From Alphaproteobacteria bacterium (lineage in GTDB: Bacteria > Pseudomonadota > Alphaproteobacteria > Rs-D84), in assembly GCA_017502865.1 (NCBI GenBank), contig JAFVUD010000005.1:144007-208006 (forward strand): a stretch of 64,000 nt of DNA, in the 5' to 3' direction. The position numbers were made by a program, and so were the translations under genes. Below are positions 1 through 34,230 of this stretch, piece after piece. How positions within the stretch are numbered: position 1 is the first letter of the stretch; every line of letters begins with the position of its first letter. The notes beneath the pieces are model-generated. The model worked only from the letters and a program-made list of their open reading frames with translations, did not search any database and was not told where the DNA came from.

Positions 1-444
1 CAAAATGCAGAACTAAACGGCCACACACTGGAACTGATTAATACCGATATCACAACATGGCGAACAAACCGCACATTTGACATCGTCGTATCCAATCCAC
101 CATATTTTCGTGGCAATCCCGCCACACATAACGCCCACCATAACGCAGATCTGCCAACATGGGTACGCCGCTGTGTTGCCCGAACCAAACCGAACGGATA
201 CTGCTGCTTAATCAGCGATGCCACAACATTGGCCACAATCATATCCAACATGACACACGCATGTGGCGATATTACAATTATCCCACTATTTGGTGCAAAA
301 AATACCGCAGAACGTGTACTGATACGGGGTCGGGTCGGGTCGCACGCTGGCACAACATTACACCAGGGCATACCTATGAATCAGGAAGCCATTTTGCGTG
401 ATGGCTTGACTATTGCAGATGTTTTGTCTAAACTGTTTCCATAA
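1..444 (+). CDS. SAM-dependent methyltransferase, C-terminal part (5' end outside window)
   Basis: Frame 1 is open from base 1 to TAA at 442-444. The translation contains FDIVVSNPPYF, the NPPY catalytic motif of N6-adenine/N5-glutamine type methyltransferases. The stop overlaps the next ATG (TAATG). Confidence 0.6.
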   Translation, partial: QNAELNGHTLELINTDITTWRTNRTFDIVVSNPPYFRGNPATHNAHHNADLPTWVRRCVARTKPNGYCCLISDATTLATIISNMTHACGDITIIPLFGAKNTAERVLIRGRVGSHAGTTLHQGIPMNQEAILRDGLTIADVLSKLFP

Positions 445-1724
445 TGTTAAACTTTATAACACGATATTTTACATCGCTGTGGGCGTTTATCACATCACCA
501 TTCCGTGCCATTTGGCGCGTGATTTCGCGTGTATTTCCACCACGTGAATTCACGGTTATGGACACCCCCCGTGGCAATGTTTACACATTCAAACAAAGCA
601 GTTTTTGGCGTTTTACACGTTTTTGCGGTAAAATAGGGCTGTTTGTCTGGGCCGCCTGGTCAACATACGTATTTGTATATCATCGTCCATTATTACAAAA
701 ACGCACCCAGCAATTGGACGAAACACGTGCCACACACGCACGCCATATGACTGATTTACAAACATACCTGACCAAATATAACGAATTAACACGCAACCTG
801 AACGTCATTGATGACAAGATTTTAAACTCTAAAAAACTTGACGACAAAGAACGCGAAAAATTAATGAACAGCCGTGTTAAAACCTGGGGTGAACTGGACT
901 TTCTGCGTACACGCATTACCGAAATGTTCACAGACGAAGATTATGCCCCCGAATACACAAAATTATCAGAATTATCTATCGAATACGAATTAACCCGTGC
1001 CGAAAACGAAGGATTAAAAAAACGCAACAATCAAATGTTGGAATCCATGGCAGAAATCACCGCCGCCGACAGCCAGATTGTAGAAGCCGTCGCCACATTA
1101 ACAACCCAAAACACCGAAGAACTACGCCAAAATATCAAAAAGATTAAAGGCACAATCGCAACACTGGGTTTATCTGAAACCACATTAATAAACAAAGCCA
1201 ACAAATATTCAAATCCACTGGTTGGCACTGCGTATAACCCATTGGATTTCGATGGCAAAATCGATGAAAAATACCAAAAATTGGCAGACGGTCTGGAATT
1301 ATGGCACGGTCTGAAACGCCTGAACGATGTATTACCACTGGGGGCCCCATTGGATAAAGTTCGCATTACATCAAATTTCGGCACCCGTAATGACCCATTC
1401 ACAGGCAAACCTAAAAAACACCGTGGCATCGACTTTGCCGGCAAAATCGGCACCGAATTAAAGGCCGTTGCCCCTGGTCGTGTTGTATCCGCCGGTGACC
1501 GTGTTGGGTATGGCACAACGGTTGAAATTGACCACGGATTGGGCTTTACAACATTATACGCCCACCTGTCACAAATAACGGTTTCACGTGGGGACTGGGT
1601 CCGTCCTGGCACTGTAATCGGGCTTGGCGGGTCATCTGGCCGTTCAACTGGCCCACACTTGCACTATGAAATCAGATACAAGGGCTCACCATTTGATCCA
1701 ACAAAATTTGTAAAGGAACAATAA
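444..1724 (+). CDS. M23 family metallopeptidase (murein endopeptidase-like) with N-terminal TM helix and coiled-coil
   Basis: 426-aa ORF. The C-terminus carries the M23 motifs HRGIDFAG...GYGTTVEIDHG...YAHL...GSSGRSTGPHLHYEIR. Confidence 0.85.
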   Translation: MLNFITRYFTSLWAFITSPFRAIWRVISRVFPPREFTVMDTPRGNVYTFKQSSFWRFTRFCGKIGLFVWAAWSTYVFVYHRPLLQKRTQQLDETRATHARHMTDLQTYLTKYNELTRNLNVIDDKILNSKKLDDKEREKLMNSRVKTWGELDFLRTRITEMFTDEDYAPEYTKLSELSIEYELTRAENEGLKKRNNQMLESMAEITAADSQIVEAVATLTTQNTEELRQNIKKIKGTIATLGLSETTLINKANKYSNPLVGTAYNPLDFDGKIDEKYQKLADGLELWHGLKRLNDVLPLGAPLDKVRITSNFGTRNDPFTGKPKKHRGIDFAGKIGTELKAVAPGRVVSAGDRVGYGTTVEIDHGLGFTTLYAHLSQITVSRGDWVRPGTVIGLGGSSGRSTGPHLHYEIRYKGSPFDPTKFVKEQ

Positions 1725-1725
1725 A

Positions 1726-2076
1726 ATGCTGGCATTTACAAACGCAAAAGAAAAACAATCACCCACAATTATCGGGGCAGGGTGCGAATTAACAGGTGAC
1801 ATTAAAACAGACCACATTGTCCAAATTCACGGCCTGGTTATTGGTAACATTACCGCCGAAACCGTTGTTATTGGTCGTGGCGGGCGTGTCCAGGGCCAAA
1901 TAAATGCCACAAACCTGTTCTTGCACGGCACACTGGATGGTCCTGCAACTGTCAACATTGCAAATGTATTTAATGCCGCCCAAATGACCGGCACATTATC
2001 ATACAGAACCCTGAACATTACCGGAAACACGGGTCTGGAATGCAAATTATCGAAACGAAAGGACAAAGAAAAATGA
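1726..2076 (+). CDS. bactofilin family polymer-forming protein
   Basis: 116 aa with repetitive beta-helix-like G/V/I pattern (IIGAGCELTGDI..IHGLVIGNI..VVIGRGGRVQGQI..LHGTLDG) typical of bactofilin/CcmA. Its stop overlaps the rpiB start (ATGA). Confidence 0.7.
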   Translation: MLAFTNAKEKQSPTIIGAGCELTGDIKTDHIVQIHGLVIGNITAETVVIGRGGRVQGQINATNLFLHGTLDGPATVNIANVFNAAQMTGTLSYRTLNITGNTGLECKLSKRKDKEK

Positions 2077-2519
2077 ACAAAACAGTATCCAAAGTCTTCA
2101 TTGCCGCCGATCACCGTGGGGTAGGCCTGAAATTATACTTGATTGAAATGCTGGCTGCGGCTGGATATAACGTTGTAAATCTGGGCACAGACGACCCAAA
2201 CGCATCTGTTGATTACCCAGATGTCGCCAACACATTGGCTGATGCCATGCTGGACGACAAAAATTCACGTGGCATCATTATTTGCGGCACTGGTGCCGGC
2301 ATTATGATTGCCGCCAACCGCCATCGCCATATTCGTGCATCACGTTGCGACCGCCCAGACCAGGCACGTGACGACCGTTTTCACGACGACACAAATGTTT
2401 TGGCATTGGCCGCAGACGACATTGATATAGAAATGGCATTTATGTGTGTCCAGGCATTTCTGGAAAGCCCATTTGATAATATCGAACGCCGCATCCGCCG
2501 TATTGAAAAAATCTCGTAA
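2073..2519 (+). CDS. rpiB: ribose-5-phosphate isomerase B (RpiB/LacAB family)
   Basis: The internal ATG at 2073 gives MNKTVSKVFIAADHRGVGLK...GIIICGTGAGIMIAANR, the RpiB signature. A hairpin terminator follows. Confidence 0.85.
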   Translation: MNKTVSKVFIAADHRGVGLKLYLIEMLAAAGYNVVNLGTDDPNASVDYPDVANTLADAMLDDKNSRGIIICGTGAGIMIAANRHRHIRASRCDRPDQARDDRFHDDTNVLALAADDIDIEMAFMCVQAFLESPFDNIERRIRRIEKIS

Positions 2520-2525
2520 AAAACA

Positions 2526-2550
2526 ATCCCCCTGTCATGGGGGATTTTTC
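2526..2550 (+). terminator. intrinsic terminator after rpiB
   Basis: ATCCCCC-TGTCAT-GGGGGAT followed by TTTTT. Confidence 0.8.
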
Positions 2551-2626
2551 ATTTTGCAACACACCTAAATTTATGATAAAATAAAAATAAACCAACAACG
2601 AATACGATTATTCAAGGGAAGGAAAA

Positions 2627-2863
2627 ATGTTAAAACCTATTGTTTTATCAACTGTTATTTTAATATCTGGCACTGCATTTGCGGACACTAAAAATATTCC
2701 ATCCCAAGAATACGTCCACGCTGTCAACACAGCAACTATCGAATACGTTGATGCCGACAAGGTTAGCGTTGCCGCCGGCACAACACAAACAATGGCGGGC
2801 GACTATACTGTGTCTGGCACATTAAACGTTCCAACACCGGCATTACCAACTGTCGAAGAATAA
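2627..2863 (+). CDS. small secreted protein of the EYV-head / VPTPxLP-tail family
   Basis: 78 aa with a signal peptide, then IPSQEYVHAV and ...TQTMAGDYTVSGTLNVPTPALPTVEE. Paralogous to 45042-45287 and 47490-47711, and to both ends of the protein at 16784-17995. Has its own terminator. Confidence 0.6.
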   Translation: MLKPIVLSTVILISGTAFADTKNIPSQEYVHAVNTATIEYVDADKVSVAAGTTQTMAGDYTVSGTLNVPTPALPTVEE

Positions 2864-2882
2864 AATCAATACAATAAATTCA

Positions 2883-2909
2883 ATCGACCCAAATCGGGTC
2901 GATTTTTTT
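2883..2909 (+). terminator. intrinsic terminator after 2627-2863
   Basis: ATCGACCC-AAATC-GGGTCGAT followed by T7. Confidence 0.8.
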
Positions 2910-2910
2910 A

Positions 2911-2941
2911 CACAAAAGAACAGGGGGGCACATCGCCCCCC
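2911..2941 (-). terminator. intrinsic terminator after leuS
   Basis: GGGGGG-CGATGTG-CCCCCC on the minus strand followed by TGTTCTTTT. Confidence 0.65.
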
Positions 2942-2945
2942 ATCC

Positions 2946-5345
2946 TTACTTTTTAACCACAAAGTTAACCAGCTTCTTTGGCACCACAATCGTTTTAATG
3001 ATTTGTACACCATCTAACTTATTGGCGACCACTTCTTTGGCACGGTTAACAATAACTTCTTCTGTGGCATCAACCGGTACAACAAATTCTGCCGCACGTT
3101 TACCATTAACCGACGCAACAATTGTCATTTCCGTTTCAACCAACTTAGCGGCATCAAACGTTGGCCACTGCGTCATCGCCAGCAATTCTGTATGCCCCAA
3201 TTTTTCCCACATTTCTTCGGTCAAATGTGGTGCAAATGGGTTCAACACCTGCAACAGCACTTCATACGCTGGCCGTGGCATTGTGCCATTAAACGCATTG
3301 ACATATTCCATCATCGCAGAAATAGTCGTATTGTATTTCATATTTTCAATACGTTCTGTCGCATCTGCAACCAATTTATTCATCAAGCGTTCTTGTTCCT
3401 GACCCATTTCATCATCTGTCAAATTATCGGCCATATTTTCCACACGTTTCAAGAAACGCTGAACACCCGCCAACGCACCTTCGGACCAGTTCACATTCGA
3501 ATCCCATGGCCCCAGTGACAACACCGTTGTACGTGCTGCGTCTGCACCAACTTCGGCAATTTTTTCATCTACCTGGAAACCATTCCCCGCAGATTTAGAC
3601 ATCTTTTTACCATCTGTCCCCATCAGCAAACCGTTCGTAGTACGTTTTTTGTATGGTTCTGGGGTGTTTACATGGCCCAAATCATACAACGCACGATGCC
3701 AGAAACGTGAATAAATCAAATGGCGTGTATTGTGTTCATTTCCACCATTATAATGGCCAACCGGCATCCATTTTTCCATCTGGGCACGTGAACAGAATTC
3801 ATTATCATTCTTTGGATCCAGATATCTCAAGAAATACCAAGAAGACCCCGCCCACTGTGGCATAGTATCTGTTTCACGTTTTGCCGCCCCACCACAATGT
3901 GGACATGTTGTATTCACCCAATCGGTCGCACGTGCCAATGGCGATTCACCATCTTCGGTTGGTCTAAAATCTTCCATATGTGGTTGCATCAATGGCAATT
4001 CAGATTCTGGTACCGGCACCCATCCGCATTTTTCGCAATACACCAACGGAATTGGTTCGCCCCAGTACATCTGACGTGAAAAACCCCAATCGCCCATGCG
4101 ATAGCGAACCTTGGGTCGTGCAAAGCCACCTTGTTCACCAACTTTGATTGCGGCGGCAATCGCATCGACCTTGTTCATGCCGTCCATAAATCCAGAATTA
4201 ATATGTTCACCATCTTCTTCCCACGCAGCCTGTGAAATATCACCACCGGCCAACACCTGAATAATTGGCAAATCAAACTTCTTGGCAAATGCATAATCAC
4301 GCCCGTCATGCGCCGGCACCGCCATAATCGTACCATGTGCATAATTCACCAGCACATAATCTGCCACGAACACAGGAATTTCAACACCTGTGAACGGATT
4401 TTTTGCCATAATCCCTTCCAGGCGAACACCTGTCTTGTCCTTGGTCGCATCTGTTCTGTCAAATTCAGACTTTGCCGCAGATTCCTTGATATACGCACGA
4501 ACTGCATCTGCATTTGTAATCTTGCCTTCATCCAACCATTTGGCCAGCAATTTATGTTCTGGGGCAATTGCACAGAATGTCACCCCAAATATTGTATCAA
4601 CACGTGTGGTATAAACCGTCATAATATCATCACCAACACGGAAGTCCACATCTGCCCCGGTTGAACGCCCAATCCAGTTTATCTGGTCACGTTTTACCTT
4701 TTCCGGATAATCAACAATATTCAACCCGTCCAGCAATTTATCTGCATACTTGGTAATCGCCAGGTTCCATTGCATTTTTTCACGCACTTCTACATCACCA
4801 TGACAGCGATTACATTTTCCATCTTCCAATTCTTCATTGGTCAGTGTTGTCCGGCACTTTGGACACCAATTCATTGGCAGCATCGATTTATATGCCAACC
4901 CTGCATTAAAGAACTGAATAAACATCCACTGGGTCCATTTGATAAATTCTGGATCCGATGTTGCCACCTGGGCCGACAAATCAATAGACCAACCCATATC
5001 CAACATATTTTTTGTAAATTTCTTGGCCAAATCACGAACAACAACCGATGGATGCTGGCCGATTTTGGTCGCATAGTTTTCCGCAGAAATCCCCAGTGAA
5101 TCAAACCCCAATGGGAACAAGACATCAAACCCCTGCATACGGCGAAAACGTGCCATAACATCACAACCTGTATAATTCAACATATGTCCACCGTGCAAAC
5201 CGGTACCCGATGGAAATGGAAATTCCGCCAACATATAGAAAGGCTGCTTTGAACCATCATTTTTTGGTGTAAAAACACCAGATTCTTGCCATTTTTTCTG
5301 CCATTTTGCTTCACGTTCGTGAACTTTCTTGATATCTTCTGCCAT
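2946..5345 (-). CDS. leuS: leucine--tRNA ligase
   Basis: 799 aa with the class I aaRS motifs HGGHMLNY (HIGH-like) and KMSKS, plus the LeuRS-type CP1 and zinc-binding region. Confidence 0.95.
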   Translation of the reverse strand: MAEDIKKVHEREAKWQKKWQESGVFTPKNDGSKQPFYMLAEFPFPSGTGLHGGHMLNYTGCDVMARFRRMQGFDVLFPLGFDSLGISAENYATKIGQHPSVVVRDLAKKFTKNMLDMGWSIDLSAQVATSDPEFIKWTQWMFIQFFNAGLAYKSMLPMNWCPKCRTTLTNEELEDGKCNRCHGDVEVREKMQWNLAITKYADKLLDGLNIVDYPEKVKRDQINWIGRSTGADVDFRVGDDIMTVYTTRVDTIFGVTFCAIAPEHKLLAKWLDEGKITNADAVRAYIKESAAKSEFDRTDATKDKTGVRLEGIMAKNPFTGVEIPVFVADYVLVNYAHGTIMAVPAHDGRDYAFAKKFDLPIIQVLAGGDISQAAWEEDGEHINSGFMDGMNKVDAIAAAIKVGEQGGFARPKVRYRMGDWGFSRQMYWGEPIPLVYCEKCGWVPVPESELPLMQPHMEDFRPTEDGESPLARATDWVNTTCPHCGGAAKRETDTMPQWAGSSWYFLRYLDPKNDNEFCSRAQMEKWMPVGHYNGGNEHNTRHLIYSRFWHRALYDLGHVNTPEPYKKRTTNGLLMGTDGKKMSKSAGNGFQVDEKIAEVGADAARTTVLSLGPWDSNVNWSEGALAGVQRFLKRVENMADNLTDDEMGQEQERLMNKLVADATERIENMKYNTTISAMMEYVNAFNGTMPRPAYEVLLQVLNPFAPHLTEEMWEKLGHTELLAMTQWPTFDAAKLVETEMTIVASVNGKRAAEFVVPVDATEEVIVNRAKEVVANKLDGVQIIKTIVVPKKLVNFVVKK

Positions 5346-5413
5346 ATCTTTGTCCTATATTTAATATGTTCGGGGCAAATTTTATAAACAAATGCCCATA
5401 AATTCAAGGAATT

Positions 5414-6127
5414 TTAATTGTGTTTTTCAAAACACGCTAAAAATTCGGTATTACCACTGCCACCCAGCACAGGTGATGGAATAACACCGCACAATCGAAA
5501 GCCCGAATGGGCAAATTCTTCAACCACACGATTGACCGACCAATCGTGCCATTCACTGGATTTAATAACCCCGTTAAATTTCGCCGCCACTTCACGCGGC
5601 ACCTCAAACTGTGGTTTAATCAGTGCAACAATCTTCTCTGGATTCCACTGGGCCAGAACACCCACAATATTCGCCAGTGATATAAAAGACACATCGACCA
5701 CAATCAAACGGGCTGATTCCGGTGGCACAACATCACGAATATCGGTCTGTTCCATCGATACCACACGTGCATCATTCCGCAGCGAATCCACTAACTGGTT
5801 CGTGCCAACGTCAACCGCATAAACCCGGGCGGCACCATTTTTCAATAAAACTTCTGTAAAACCACCCGTACTGGCCCCGACATCCAAACACACCATGCCA
5901 TCTGGATTAATTTTGAAATGTTCCAGTGCCCGTGCCAACTTCAAACTGCCACGACCAGTGGAATAGGGTAAATCACGCCCTATAATATCATCTGTATCCA
6001 AAACCGGTTGACTGGGTTTCTTAGCGACAACCCCATTTACAAAAACCAACCCCGCATCTATCGCAGCCACCGCTTTGGCACGGCTGGGGTATAAATTACG
6101 CTGAACCAGTTCTTGATCTAATCTCAT
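5414..6127 (-). CDS. tlyA: TlyA family rRNA (cytidine-2'-O)-methyltransferase
   Basis: 237 aa. N-terminal S4-like MRLDQELVQRNLYPSRAKA, then FtsJ-type SAM motif CLDVGASTGGFTEVLL. Confidence 0.85.
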   Translation of the reverse strand: MRLDQELVQRNLYPSRAKAVAAIDAGLVFVNGVVAKKPSQPVLDTDDIIGRDLPYSTGRGSLKLARALEHFKINPDGMVCLDVGASTGGFTEVLLKNGAARVYAVDVGTNQLVDSLRNDARVVSMEQTDIRDVVPPESARLIVVDVSFISLANIVGVLAQWNPEKIVALIKPQFEVPREVAAKFNGVIKSSEWHDWSVNRVVEEFAHSGFRLCGVIPSPVLGGSGNTEFLACFEKHN

Positions 6128-6373
6128 ACTACCAATCTTACCCCAGCATATTTACAAAATCAACCGCAATAAATTTATACAGAACAAACATGGAAAAACA
6201 CCAAATAAAAACACCATTTTTACAATTATTAAAAATCATCATGATTTATGTAATATCAAATTATTACTTTAACAATCTAAATTATTTTCTCAACTTTTAT
6301 ATACCTCATCAAAAACACTTACTTTTTGCCCGGCAATCACCCACCCCCAAGCCTAAAAAGCCACCAAAAACCG

Positions 6374-6424
6374 CCCCACCGGGCACAAAAACACCCGCAA
6401 ACCCGCAGAAATCCGCCATTTTTT
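6374..6424. repeat. ~52-bp direct repeat, copy 1 (CCCCACCGGGCACAAAAACACCCGCAAACCCGCAGAAATCCGCCATTTTTT)
   Basis: Matches 7309-7361 with 2 substitutions and a 2-nt indel. Confidence 0.8.
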
Positions 6425-7028
6425 CAATTTTTACCGGCCAGAGCAGGGCAAAAACCACCATTTTTCACCATTTTAACGCCACGCACACAAACAGCCGTTT
6501 TTGCACATTTTCACACCATCAAACAGACCATTTTTACACAAACACATAAAACAATTTATAAACGTATAATCAAAATAATATTTTTAACTTTATATAAATT
6601 AAATTAACTTTATTAACAAGAAAAACACCGGTGACAAAACCACACAAAAAAATCAATTTCAACACAACAGACAACAAGCCACGACATAACCAGAACATAA
6701 AACCAAATCGATTTTCAGCGACCTGAATCAAACCAGACATATAAATATACGCCCAGCACATTCAAACCAAGACATCACAAGAATAAAGCAATACACCAGA
6801 CGGATACAAATCGATTTTCATCGACCAAAAACAAAACAACCACACAACCATACCACCAGGCCGCCCAAATTCGATTACAACAACCACATACACAACAAAC
6901 AAACGCAACCGCATCAACCACAAATCAAACACAAACAAAACAACAACCAAACACAGCCCAGACCACAAACACCAACACAAAAACAAATAACAACATATTA
7001 CACAATTTCGCTATACACACTATATCAA

Positions 7029-7056
7029 ACTATACATAATATACATTATACGCCTT
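7029..7056 (-). other. dif-like Xer recombination site candidate
   Basis: The minus-strand 28-mer AAGGCGTATAATGTATATTATGTATAGT matches E. coli dif GGTGCGCATAATGTATATTATGTTAAAT at 21/28 positions, including a 16-nt exact run ATAATGTATATTATGT (hand alignment). Confidence 0.55.
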
Positions 7057-7308
7057 TTATATATTGCTATAACCTGCCGTTTTCCGCCACTTTTTATCCC
7101 ACCCATTACACAACAAATAATTATTTATAATTTCGGTACAGCACTTATATTTTTTATAATTCATCACCTAACCCAGACCACCTGGACCATCGGGTTCGCC
7201 TATTGTACCCGCACAATACCTTTACACACCCGTATTACTCAAAAACAACACCCCGCATATCCATCCACACAAAAAATCACCTTTACCCATAAAACACATG
7301 CCCACCCA

Positions 7309-7361
7309 CCCCACCGGACACAAAAAAACACCCGCAAACCCGCAGAAATCCGCTATTTTTT
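7309..7361. repeat. ~52-bp direct repeat, copy 2
   Basis: See copy 1. The copies are 935 bp apart inside the ORF-free region. Confidence 0.8.
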
Positions 7362-7450
7362 ACCAAAAAACCGCCAAAATCCGCCTATTTTACGCCTTTT
7401 TTGCAAACAAACTATACATAATCCACCAACACCAAACATACCATCCGCAA

Positions 7451-7483
7451 ATAAAAAGTGGCGATGCAAATATGCCCGCCACC
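7451..7483 (-). terminator. intrinsic terminator after mscL
   Basis: GTGGCG...CGCCAC stem with a 13-nt loop, followed by TTTTTAT on the minus strand. Confidence 0.6.
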
Positions 7484-7506
7484 TAATTAAATCAATTTGT
7501 CACAAA

Positions 7507-8067
7507 TTACTTTTTAGTCTTTGTAATCTTTTTGATTTTTGAAATCTGACCAGACGCAATTTTAGTCAAATTTTTGATGCCTTTTTCCAATTCGCTATCT
7601 TCTACTTCGCCTGTTTTTACAGGTTCCACAGCCGAACAGCAATGCGGACATTTTGTTGCAGAATTACTAATCGACATCGTGCAATATGGACACGCATGTG
7701 TGTTCGCAGGTTTCTTGCTACGCATTTTATTAACCGTACGCACAAACAAGAATATCGCAAACATAGTAATAAAGAAACTAACCACAGAATTCAGGAACAG
7801 CCCCATATTCAATGTTGTCGCACCTGCTGCCTGGGCGGCTGCAATTGTTTCATAATGCCCACCCGATGGATTATTCAACACAAAGAACCACTGGGAAAAA
7901 TCAACCCCACCTATCAACAACCCAATCGGCGGCATAATAACATCTTTTACCAGTGAATTTACAACACCGGTCATAACACTACCTACGATGATACCGACAG
8001 CCATGTCGATAGCATTGCCACGTTCCACAAATGCGCGGAATTCTTTTAATAAATTGGTCTTAGCCAT
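7507..8067 (-). CDS. mscL: large-conductance mechanosensitive channel MscL with C-terminal CxxC...CxxC extension
   Basis: N-terminus LKEFRAFVERGNAIDMAVGIIVG...PPIGLLIGGVDFS is canonical MscL. About 60 extra C-terminal residues contain CPYC...CPHCC. Confidence 0.85.
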   Translation of the reverse strand: MAKTNLLKEFRAFVERGNAIDMAVGIIVGSVMTGVVNSLVKDVIMPPIGLLIGGVDFSQWFFVLNNPSGGHYETIAAAQAAGATTLNMGLFLNSVVSFFITMFAIFLFVRTVNKMRSKKPANTHACPYCTMSISNSATKCPHCCSAVEPVKTGEVEDSELEKGIKNLTKIASGQISKIKKITKTKK

Positions 8068-8644
8068 TTTCTTTCCTTTTTTCTATATATTCGGTTATTG
8101 CTGCAACAACCTTGTCCAGGGTTTTACGCAGGCTTTCATCACGTGTTTCCACCGTAATATCCGCCAACGCATATGTTTTATAGCGTTCATCAATAAGCTG
8201 CCCCAGGATTTGGCGACTGTCCGCATGCAACAATTGCGGTCGTGTATGCCGAAAATTAGTCCGCTTAACCAGCAAATCTAAATCCGCACGCAACCACACT
8301 GTAATCGCACGCTTCATCACCATTTCACGCACAGCCGGCGTAATAAACGCCCCCTCGCCCGTAGATAAAACCTTTAACCCCGGCCCCGTATCCAACAAAC
8401 GTTCTATAACACGCTGTTCTACACGCCGAAATTCGGTTTCACCATACATTGCAAAGATATCAACCACGCTGCAGCCCGCAGCTGCTTCTATTTCTTTATC
8501 AGAATCAACGAACGGAATCCCCAGCCGCCGTGCCAACGCACGCCCGACACTGGTTTTTCCCGCCCCCATCAGCCCAACCATAACGATTGGCCTGTCTAAC
8601 AAAGATACTATTTCTTTACCCATAACACCCGTTATTCTATACAA
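8060..8644 (-). CDS. aroK: shikimate kinase
   Basis: Walker A motif GLMGAGKTSVGRALA followed by PFVDSDKEIE. The 3' end overlaps the mscL start by 8 nt. Confidence 0.85.
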   Translation of the reverse strand: MYRITGVMGKEIVSLLDRPIVMVGLMGAGKTSVGRALARRLGIPFVDSDKEIEAAAGCSVVDIFAMYGETEFRRVEQRVIERLLDTGPGLKVLSTGEGAFITPAVREMVMKRAITVWLRADLDLLVKRTNFRHTRPQLLHADSRQILGQLIDERYKTYALADITVETRDESLRKTLDKVVAAITEYIEKRKENG

Positions 8645-8769
8645 AAATGCTAAAATTCACAATAAAAATTCGCACAGCCCTGTTTTACCTTTTTATTTTC
8701 AGGATTTTTATGCTATAATATAACTATCAAAAACCTTAATTTAACCCAAAGAACAGAGAGAGAAGCAAA

Positions 8770-9819
8770 ATGAAATCAGCATTCTTTATTGCACCCGCTT
8801 TGATATTCTCTGCTGTCCACGCATCCGATGCCACCGCATCCATGTATGCCAGCACCATATCATCGCACAACATTATGCAAATTCAACACAGTGCACTGTC
8901 AAACGCATTTAATGCATTTGAATCAAACCGCACAACCCCTGCCCCTGCAAAAAAACAGGCAAAACCATCACCTGATCGTTATGGCACAATGTCAATGTAC
9001 GGCGAATACGGCGACGACGGTTCTGTATTCCAGGGCCGCAACGGTGGCGAATCCCCTGCACTGCGTGGCACATGGGCAAATTGGCAGCATACCAGCGACG
9101 ACGTACACTTTAATGACTACGCTGTTGTAGATACGGACACAGACATCATCACATTAGGTCTGGCCGGCGGCAAAAAACGCACTTCACACGGCACAACCGA
9201 ATGGGGCCTGTTCGGCGGCTACTTTAACGGCGACCAGACAACATCCGACACCACCATTGACCAACAGGGTGGCTTTGCCGGTGTTTACAGTGGTTATGCC
9301 CAAAACAACTTCCGTGTTGTCGCTGGCATCTCGGGCGGTGTAATGGATAATGGCGTAGAATTCGCATCTGGCGAAGATTCATTTGTTAATATGTGGGTCG
9401 GCGCCGGCGTTCGTTCAACATACGACATTCCATTGGACTCTACATTTACACTGCGTCCTGGTCTGCAGATTGAATACACTTGGATAAATTCACCAAGTTA
9501 CACTTCTGAATCCGGCATGGATATCGAACCAGACAACTTCAGTGCATTTAACATTGTGCCATCATTCCGTGCAATCAAACACATTGCAAACGGCTGGTAC
9601 GGCAGTGCAAATGTTAAATACGTTGCCACAATCACCCAAGAAGATGCACTGTTCGTAGATTCCGTCGCATTCCCTGCGCTGGAAATCGACAACTATACCG
9701 AATACGGCATCACATTGGAAAAATCGATTGCTGGATTTGACTTTGCCGCCACATTGGCACGCCGCGACGGTGGCCGCTCGGGCTGGCTGGGCCAATTTAA
9801 CATCAAATACGCATTCTAA
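8770..9819 (+). CDS. outer-membrane beta-barrel protein, autotransporter-barrel-like
   Basis: Signal peptide MKSAFFIAPALIFSAVHA, alternating beta-strand pattern, and C-terminal ...NIKYAF ending in an aromatic residue. An RBS-like purine run precedes the ATG. Confidence 0.6.
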   Translation: MKSAFFIAPALIFSAVHASDATASMYASTISSHNIMQIQHSALSNAFNAFESNRTTPAPAKKQAKPSPDRYGTMSMYGEYGDDGSVFQGRNGGESPALRGTWANWQHTSDDVHFNDYAVVDTDTDIITLGLAGGKKRTSHGTTEWGLFGGYFNGDQTTSDTTIDQQGGFAGVYSGYAQNNFRVVAGISGGVMDNGVEFASGEDSFVNMWVGAGVRSTYDIPLDSTFTLRPGLQIEYTWINSPSYTSESGMDIEPDNFSAFNIVPSFRAIKHIANGWYGSANVKYVATITQEDALFVDSVAFPALEIDNYTEYGITLEKSIAGFDFAATLARRDGGRSGWLGQFNIKYAF

Positions 9820-33276: not shown

Positions 33277-34230
33277 TTATCGCTGGTTCAAACTGTTAAC
33301 AAAATTTAACAGGCGTTCATTATCATCGTACCACGCAACCAGTCCAACCAACTCAATCGCCCGTTCTGCTTCGGCTTTATCACGGGCGTTTTTTGCATTT
33401 GCACGTGCCCGTTGAACCGCTGCTGCATCCATACATGCAACCTGGCGAAACAATTTACGTGCCCGATACGACATACTGCCATAATCTGTACGATATGTTT
33501 CGCCCCAATCTATTCTGCGACCAGCACGCAGATTTCTGCTTTTATTTTCATCATCACGTGCGACAAAGACAATATACTTGTTTTCACGCTGTCTGATTTC
33601 ATCATCTTTATCCCCACCCCACGCAGACAACATATATTGTTCATACATTAACGATGCCATATAGACCATATTATTATCACGTGGTTCTGCCCTGCCCGCA
33701 GCCAACGCCGTGGCAACTTCGAACCATGGCCCATGACTAAAATGCAGCCATTGGTCGGCATCATGATGAAATAACTTTAACGCATAGTGTGCATTAATAT
33801 CTGGAAACGATAACTTAGACACAAATCCAGATATACCAACCCACGGATTACATTCGGTTATACCACGTGTATGCAATTGACACTGTGTACCGAACAAATC
33901 ACCAATTTCTGGAATATTATAAACAACATCTGCCTTGGCGACACGCATCTGTGGTGCATTTTGAATCAAGAAATTTTCTAGCCCATCACGAAACAGTACC
34001 GTTATTTCCGCAATCTTGCCCCCGGGCAATTGTGCCCGCAGTTCCGGTGGCAACGCCCCCAGATATGGCGACACATCACAGTTATAAACGATACGTCGCA
34101 GCACATTTGGATTACGTTCCCATTTATGACGTAACACCTTGGTCAAAGCAGGATGCTTGACCCGTGGTGCGTTTATATCATAAATCAAAATATTGTCTAA
34201 ATTCGTTATCACACCAGACTTATAGTACAA
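33277..34230 (-). CDS. hypothetical protein (317 aa, cytoplasmic)
   Basis: Long ORF with normal amino-acid composition. No motif I can name. Confidence 0.55.
   Translation of the reverse strand: MYYKSGVITNLDNILIYDINAPRVKHPALTKVLRHKWERNPNVLRRIVYNCDVSPYLGALPPELRAQLPGGKIAEITVLFRDGLENFLIQNAPQMRVAKADVVYNIPEIGDLFGTQCQLHTRGITECNPWVGISGFVSKLSFPDINAHYALKLFHHDADQWLHFSHGPWFEVATALAAGRAEPRDNNMVYMASLMYEQYMLSAWGGDKDDEIRQRENKYIVFVARDDENKSRNLRAGRRIDWGETYRTDYGSMSYRARKLFRQVACMDAAAVQRARANAKNARDKAEAERAIELVGLVAWYDDNERLLNFVNSLNQR

Follow-up and report, generated by a model that had tools for sequence, protein, structure and literature searches.

A 28-nucleotide sequence at positions 7029-7056 of the stretch of DNA analysed here (64,000 nucleotides, hereafter the window; positions refer to it unless a contig or locus is named) is, judging from its sequence and context, the real chromosomal dif of Candidatus Enterousia (Alphaproteobacteria), because it is conserved and syntenic among relatives, its genome encodes the Xer and FtsK proteins, and KOPS converge on it. 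It is a known kind of site, previously undescribed in this lineage. The best explanation of the data, and in our judgement a very probable one, is a chromosomal dif that is KOPS-guided and displaced from the replication turning point. The skew turning point lies off the dif/KOPS centre by 6-10% of the chromosome (60-90 kb), and this offset is real, genus-wide and unusual.

The window corresponds to C5:144007-208006 of a MAG in six contigs (889 kb, 78% complete; labelled G000), and dif is located at C5:151,035, i.e. 151 kb into a 300-kb contig. The relatives found with tlyA were gut MAGs, from ruminants among others, that carry the names Candidatus Enterousia or Alphaproteobacteria bacterium. 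Candidatus Enterousia belongs to the uncultured order Rs-D84 and has genomes of <1 Mb (PMC12306168).

The dif site, its conservation and KOPS polarity

The site and its surroundings comprise the following features.

7029-7056, minus strand: dif, 28 bp, predicted XerC/XerD recombination site (21/28 to E. coli dif, conservation, KOPS convergence)
7046-7056, minus strand: XerC arm of dif, AAGGCGTATAA
7040-7045, minus strand: central TGTATA of dif
7029-7039, minus strand: XerD arm of dif, TTATGTATAGT
6128-7506: spacer containing dif, 1,379 bp, ORF-free and extremely G-poor, with a GC skew of -0.58 on either side of the site
7507-8067, minus strand: mscL, large-conductance mechanosensitive channel, neighbour on the XerC side (PF01741, 1e-34; synteny)
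5414-6127, minus strand: tlyA-type rRNA methyltransferase gene, neighbour on the XerD side (FtsJ and S4 domains; synteny)
6371-6424, plus strand: direct repeat copy 1 (~55 bp), XerD side of dif, 88-95% identity to copy 2
7306-7361, plus strand: direct repeat copy 2, XerC side of dif, 88-95% identity to copy 1

The plus strand of 7029-7056 is ACTATACATAATATACATTATACGCCTT and the minus strand is AAGGCGTATAATGTATATTATGTATAGT; the layout is 11-6-11, with two 11-bp arms and a 6-bp centre. A dif-like 28-mer in an ORF-free region had been proposed in the first-pass annotation of this DNA. Recomputation confirmed that it shares 21 of its 28 positions with E. coli dif, including an exact 16-nt core, and the gap 6128-7506 around it contains no credible ORF. 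The 28-mer is single in the window, where dinucleotide shuffles gave no chance match (0/100), and also in the whole assembly, where the runner-up to E. coli dif has 8 mismatches. The better match elsewhere that would have counted against the site was therefore absent, and no second dif candidate was found in the 889-kb assembly (78% complete). One dif site only is present in G003, a relative with two contigs (945 kb, 94% complete).

In a pattern search of 41 genomes (40 relatives and this genome), dif was present in 38, nearly always as one copy; it was found in all 24 other genus genomes searched, and five other families of the order have it in most genomes. The consensus is AAGGCG(C/T)ATAATGTATATTATGTATAGT in the genus and TTGTCGCATAATATATATTATGT... 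in the other families; all 28 positions are conserved within the genus and a 19-nt core in the five other families. The comparison of this intergenic region among relatives, which the first-pass annotation had proposed as a check, thus showed the 28-mer to be kept and its flanks to have diverged, the DNA flanking dif being unrelated between relatives in the alignment. As for the 23 Enterousia loci fetched via tlyA, dif is upstream of tlyA in the same orientation in 19 (20 when L060, a variant with a 7-nt centre, is counted), and the order aroK-mscL-dif-tlyA was observed in 17 of these loci, the genus context being aroK-mscL-dif-tlyA-leuS. The spacer lengths vary from 68 to 453 bp on the mscL side and from 465 to 2367 bp on the tlyA side (17 loci measured).

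Within the spacer, an mscL terminator hairpin with a T-run is located at about 7450-7481, and the hairpin can be aligned across species. The ~55-bp direct repeat brackets dif, 605 bp off one side and 250 bp off the other; it has two copies only, genome-wide, and a related stretch in L045. An Rfam scan of 5000-9000 (E<=1) gave no match, and no tRNA genes were found close to dif. The MscL of the window ends in an extra ~60 residues that include two CxxC pairs (CPYC...CPHC); this C-terminal extension is zinc-ribbon-like and is missing from ordinary MscL. Where relatives have a long dif-tlyA spacer, small genes of a repeated family occur in it, one to four per spacer, with the motif C-(D/N)-G-C-x2-x-C-x-L...(Y/I)-x-P-T-I-N; no such genes were observed in the window. 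The loci of this family are as follows.

L044:2348-3911: spacer-gene family
L052:2339-3907: spacer-gene family
L053:1971-3911: spacer-gene family
L055:3086-3898: spacer-gene family
L054:3091-3996: spacer-gene family
L045:3654-3971: spacer-gene family

Two tyrosine recombinases are encoded in the genome (288 and 303 aa), and both xerC and xerD, on the presence of which the first-pass proposal depended, were thus assigned by their best NCBIfam matches.

C6:172192-173058: XerD-like recombinase (best NCBIfam match TIGR02225, 294 bits)
C1:19084-19995: XerC-like recombinase (best NCBIfam match TIGR02224, 292 bits)

Both scores are below the equivalog cut-offs, and that of the first (XerD-like) is above the PRK00283 cut-off. 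FtsK (750 aa) has the alpha, motor and gamma domains, the last at residues 692-750 (PF09397 FtsK_gamma, 67 bits).

The 8-mer GGGCAGGG, which was picked out by a strand-bias screen of all 8-mers, belongs to the E. coli KOPS family GGGNAGGG. Copies in the window are as follows.

1775-1782, plus strand: KOPS word GGGCAGGG, pointing rightwards to dif, on the C-rich strand
8937-8944, minus strand: KOPS word GGGCAGGG, pointing leftwards to dif
33690-33697, minus strand: KOPS word GGGCAGGG, pointing leftwards to dif

The KOPS-like motif analysis that had been suggested in the first pass showed a polarity converging exactly on the 28-mer: over the whole genome (synteny-ordered), the arm that reaches dif from its XerC side has GGGCAGGG at 32:0 and the other arm has it at 4:35, and no other 8-mer is near-completely polar in both arms. 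The word is 31:0 on the G-rich strand over the 392 kb leading to the XerC side of dif; past dif, the counts are 0:9 for the first 80 kb and 1:7 from there on. On contig C5, 18 of 19 GGGNAGGG matches before 151 kb are on the plus strand, and each of the eight GGGCAGGG copies after 151 kb is on the minus strand. G003 and G013 also show the flip of polarity at dif, and within 20 kb of dif in eight other species of the genus GGGCAGGG counts are 6:0 to the XerC side and 0:12 to the XerD side; with this genome and ten others, the flip at dif was observed in 11 genus genomes. Across dif in other families (eight genomes), the counts of GGGNAGGG are 8:0 and 0:6. Such convergence is the signature expected of a working FtsK-guided dif. 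A second polar 8-mer, TGCGCTGG (33:6 in one arm, 5:32 in the other), also converges on dif and may be a Chi-like or a second architecture-imparting sequence.

The lone XerD half-site and prophages at dif

The DNA on the XerC side of dif contains one further feature.

7408-7422, minus strand: lone XerD half-site ATTATGTATAGTTTG (arm 7411-7421), in the dif orientation, 382 bp off dif on the XerC side

A partial copy of one dif arm had been reported here at a distance of 382 bp, and this held: the 15-mer CAAACTATACATAAT at 7408-7422 is identical to 7026-7040. The half-site has the consensus (GGA)TTATGTATAGTTT; it follows the T-run of the mscL terminator at a distance of 25-40 nt and is 254-382 bp away from dif. 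It is letter-perfect in 12 species, nine of which are prophage-free and three prophage-bearing (L202, L204, and L205), and it is missing from six species with a short mscL-dif spacer; in the LeuS tree, the forms with and without it are interspersed. Since it is perfect in 12 species beside 250-380 bp that cannot be aligned across species, we consider maintenance by selection a rather better account of the half-site than a decaying scar. No further exact lone XerD arms were found in the genome beyond the copy beside dif, and arms with one mismatch are rarer than in shuffled sequence (10 vs 28-42), with no pattern. In two species (L053:1951 and L058:2336), an inverted lone XerD arm is located ~310-355 bp from dif on the XerD side, replacing the direct one on the XerC side.

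By analogy with the E. coli proteins, it is conceivable that the half-site acts as a backstop for FtsK overrunning dif from the tlyA side. An SMC-unloading role like that of the XDS was also considered and is unlikely, because ScpB (PF04079) was found in none of 26 Enterousia genomes, 17 of which are at least 90% complete; the SMC-ScpAB condensin may be missing from the genus.

At least five relatives carry an integrase-less Microviridae prophage of 4.3-5.9 kb between mscL and dif, with genes for capsid F (PF02305, 3e-35), Rep (PF23343), and a pilot-like protein.

L202:2532-6934: Microviridae prophage, mscL to tlyA orientation
L203:2272-7030: Microviridae prophage, mscL to tlyA orientation
L204:2443-8411: Microviridae prophage, mscL to tlyA orientation
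L205:2434-6857: Microviridae prophage, mscL to tlyA orientation
L206:2929-8678: Microviridae prophage, mscL to tlyA orientation

The insertion is precisely in the central region of dif. The mscL side in L204, L205, and L206 consists of the chromosomal XerC arm and, after it, a degenerate XerD arm, and a good dif is at the tlyA side; in L202 and L203 a near-perfect dif is at the mscL side and an altered site at the tlyA side. Because these junctions are typical of Xer-mediated insertion, XerCD would appear to use this dif in nature, which supports its identity. At the left junction of L204-L206, the XerC arm, an altered centre, and the degenerate XerD arm are followed ~50 nt on by an inverted second dif-like site. 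The attP of CTXphi is a folded single strand, and the Enterousia prophage ends recall such folding; by this analogy, a forked hairpin like that of CTXphi attP could form at the left junction of L204-L206.

These prophages bear on the reading, offered in the first-pass annotation, of an IMEX (integrative element exploiting Xer) since resolved or decayed. Its two ends would be the full and the partial site, and the real dif, or the original position of dif, would then be elsewhere. The 15-nt duplicate 382 bp from dif fits such a pair of ends, but DNA bounded by two recognisable dif-like sites, which characterises an IMEX, was found in L202-L206 and not here: the 354 bp between dif and the half-site are non-coding and non-conserved, and the second site is without the XerC arm or the centre. 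Relatives do carry prophages flanked by dif-like sites at this very place; however, these leave an XerC arm with a degenerate XerD arm on the mscL side, whereas the supposed partial copy of this genome is a perfect XerD arm without an XerC arm. The patchy presence of the half-site in the LeuS tree likewise speaks for this reading, but the half-site coexists with the prophages and lies outside them (L202, L204, and L205). No phage or element genes or remnants were found between the two sites or anywhere in this genome (0 phage ORF remnants), and the assembly offers no other dif candidate to be the original one. When the spacers were compared with the prophage ends, the only notable match was the dif-like sequence (E 1.6e-5), the remaining matches being short and weak (E 4e-4 to 0.1). 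The reading has some merit at the genus level; for this genome, we regard it as improbable.

GC skew around dif

The absence of a skew switch around the site, pointed out in the first-pass annotation, was borne out, and its hand counts were exact (15 C and 10 G at 1-60, 20 C and 8 G at 61-120). The GC skew is -0.216 to the left (1-7028) and -0.209 to the right (7057-64000), and all 32 of the 2-kb windows are negative, with no reversal anywhere in the window. Skew at the third codon position (GC3) was split into a strand component (R) and a transcription component (T). R is -0.23 to -0.46 (-0.23 to -0.44 over C5:80-300 kb, with its peak in the dif bin), and T is mostly <0.1 in magnitude; transcription as the source of the skew was ruled out by this decomposition. 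Skew of the same sign on both sides of dif was observed in all nine other genus genomes sampled; the genomes named for it are G003, G013, G017, G001, G002, G020, G023, and G004, and it is weaker in G040 (family f3). The non-coding spacers on both sides of dif also have a one-sided composition, with 6-15% C (17 related loci).

With cumulative GC skew, the check proposed in the first pass, the turning point was found away from dif. In G003 the cumulative curve is lowest at C1:9 kb and highest at C1:478 kb, which gives antipodal points with arms of 469 and 476 kb, and dif, at 388.6 kb, precedes the turning point by 90 kb (9.5% of the genome). The skew of G013 fades ~110 kb past dif. In the genome of the window, strong skew lasts 60-80 kb past dif, after which the GC3 skew falls by ~0.3, and the turning point is at least 60-80 kb from dif. 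For the other families of the order, the reversal of the skew was located at dif itself or about 0-20 kb from it: the skew is +0.175 and -0.174 across dif in G035 and similar in G026, G028, G030, and G039, and G025 and G038 have their turning point a few to ~20 kb off dif, on the other side. Kono et al. (2011) reported dif within 3% of genome size from the skew shift-point in 578 genomes (PMC3025954). The Enterousia dif falls outside this range, its offset being 9.5% in G003. The location of dif at the shift-point is a usual correlate and not a mechanistic requirement.

One might attribute the missing skew switch to misassembly or to a recent inversion or translocation that moved dif to the middle of a replichore, as the genome is a MAG in six contigs with some local rearrangements relative to G003. 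The contigs are nevertheless collinear with G003 (in the order C6, C3, reverse C5, C1, C2, C4 along it), gene order is kept for >100 kb on either side of dif, and the same one-sign skew occurs in the nine other genus genomes, which were independently assembled. On the 'wrong' side of dif, third codon positions and the fast-evolving spacers both have the skew at its full value, which indicates equilibrium, and the KOPS polarity fits the present position of dif. An artefact or recent event is therefore very unlikely. The first-pass reading of a true dif on a rearranged chromosome accordingly stood as to the true dif; 'rearranged' applies only loosely, the nine genus genomes giving no sign of a recent rearrangement or misassembly. 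In family f3, the gene order near dif is too scrambled for the displacement to be dated by outgroup synteny.

The annotation had also considered a plasmid-type multimer resolution site. A site of this type (cer/psi-like) would work with accessory sequences and independently of FtsK and would need no terminus. In cer and psi, accessory sequences are located beside the XerC arm. A long non-coding stretch is indeed present on that side here, but it is not conserved between species, the site is at 151 kb of a 300-kb contig that is collinear with the chromosomes of relatives, and the FtsK gamma domain with the KOPS convergence is the signature of the FtsK-dependent chromosomal pathway, so that this reading is scarcely credible. 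A chance AT-rich palindrome or a transcription-factor operator resembling dif, for which the AT-rich and low-complexity character of the region speaks, can be dismissed given 0 matches in 100 shuffles, 28 positions kept in the genus and the 19-nt core in five other families, a nearly always single copy, and the prophages that attach at dif.

In G000, the GC3 skew is positive on one strand all round the assembled chromosome (+0.3 to +0.45 in one arm and +0.03 to +0.11 in the other); the second arm is without the opposite skew, unlike that of G003, which has the normal +/- pattern. The KOPS (35:4) and the gene-strand bias of this second arm are normal for a counter-clockwise arm. The profile of G000 is what the usual replication step would give with a one-strand offset added along the whole chromosome; put differently, ~60% of the replication rounds would be completed by one fork. 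Quasi-unidirectional replication or a strand bias of the entire chromosome may thus account for it.

As a marker of the origin, dnaA was uninformative, the gene being in the middle of the strongly skewed arm. The genome has only two clusters with at least 4 DnaA-box-like 9-mers within 600 bp.

C6:40522-40795: DnaA-box cluster, adjoining the KOPS divergence (C6:45-54 kb)
C6:98223-98412: DnaA-box cluster, near the start of the strong skew

The skew rises at C6:60-110 kb. The two clusters, the KOPS divergence, and the skew rise are candidate origin marks, the clusters perhaps being an old and a new origin.

Proposed mechanism and comparison with known systems

For a chromosomal dif that is KOPS-guided and displaced from the turning point, the following mechanism is proposed. 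From the parts list and the E. coli model, XerC and XerD would bind the two arms of dif, and FtsK, steered by GGGCAGGG, would pump DNA to dif from both arms at division and activate recombination there, by which chromosome dimers would be resolved. The dif site would not be opposite the origin, the ori-to-dif arms being ~40% and 60% of the chromosome in G003, and no fork trap would hold termination at dif. The fork of the shorter arm would pass through dif and meet the other fork 60-90 kb on, near the origin antipode. Mutational skew would track fork direction, which was read here from base composition alone, and selection would keep KOPS aimed at dif. The skew would then be unreversed at dif because dif is not opposite the origin, and skew and KOPS would disagree over 60-90 kb because the former follows the forks and the latter follow dif. 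Since the second arm of G000 is without the opposite skew, meeting of the forks at the antipode would explain the drop at 60-80 kb and not the whole profile. A shift of the origin or unequal DNA loss between the arms is a possible cause of the arm imbalance. According to work quoted in PMC3025954, E. coli dif functions away from the termination region if it is placed where KOPS converge, with which the proposed mechanism agrees.

A bolder joint reading would combine segregation and replication termini that are stably uncoupled in the genus, quasi-unidirectional replication in the species of G000 (suggested by its one strand that is G-rich at third codon positions all round), and the half-site as an auxiliary FtsK stop; we regard this combination as doubtful. 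If it were true, forks would routinely replicate through dif, and in the species of G000 one fork alone would complete a large share of the rounds, about half or more.

Most of the argument over whether dif is where replication ends, and over whether replication or FtsK/KOPS-guided segregation sets the position of dif, has relied on E. coli constructs and on the tight correlation of dif with skew across genomes. Here a whole genus naturally separates the two signals, with KOPS aimed at dif on the C-rich strand over 60-90 kb, which supports KOPS convergence, and not fork meeting, as the definer of dif position and offers a natural system for studying forks passing through dif. The analysis also supplies dif and KOPS sequences for the uncultured order Rs-D84 and shows the Enterousia dif to be the attachment site of integrase-less Microviridae prophages.

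Among known systems, the Enterousia site differs from cer and psi in being chromosomal and in that its adjacent XerC-side sequence is not conserved. It resembles the E. coli dif/XerC-XerD/FtsK-KOPS system in the 28-bp 11-6-11 site with an identical 16-nt core, one per chromosome, in the two paralogous tyrosine recombinases, in FtsK with a gamma domain, and in converging words of the KOPS family GGGNAGGG (here GGGCAGGG). It departs from E. coli and from the 578 genomes of PMC3025954 in that the skew turning point is 60-90 kb (6-10%) from dif, and from the E. coli system in that KOPS lie on the C-rich strand in the offset zone and a conserved lone XerD half-site is present 254-382 bp from dif.

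The integrase-less Microviridae of the relatives, inserted in dif with a good dif at one end and a site whose XerD arm is degenerate at the other, are like the enterogokushoviruses and the CTXphi-type Vibrio IMEXs, although no element is integrated in this window. Kirchberger and Ochman (2020) described enterogokushovirus prophages at E. coli dif with a single motif (PMC7062461); unlike these, the Enterousia prophages have a second dif-like site, in inverted orientation, ~50 nt in from their left end.

As for the half-site, the XDS of B. subtilis are XerD-specific binding sites, several across the terminus, that act on SMC-ScpAB (Karaboja et al. 2021, as cited in PMC10945525). The Enterousia half-site is similar in being an isolated XerD arm in the terminus region, conserved without an XerC partner, and differs in being one copy beside dif instead of several and in belonging to a genus with ScpB missing from 26/26 genomes. 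In the in vitro study of Graham et al. (2010), E. coli XerD on a half-site stops FtsK that reaches its outer face (PMC2800217); that paper describes no natural auxiliary half-site beside dif, and its roadblock was formed by E. coli proteins in vitro. In the Enterousia half-site, the outer face points to dif.
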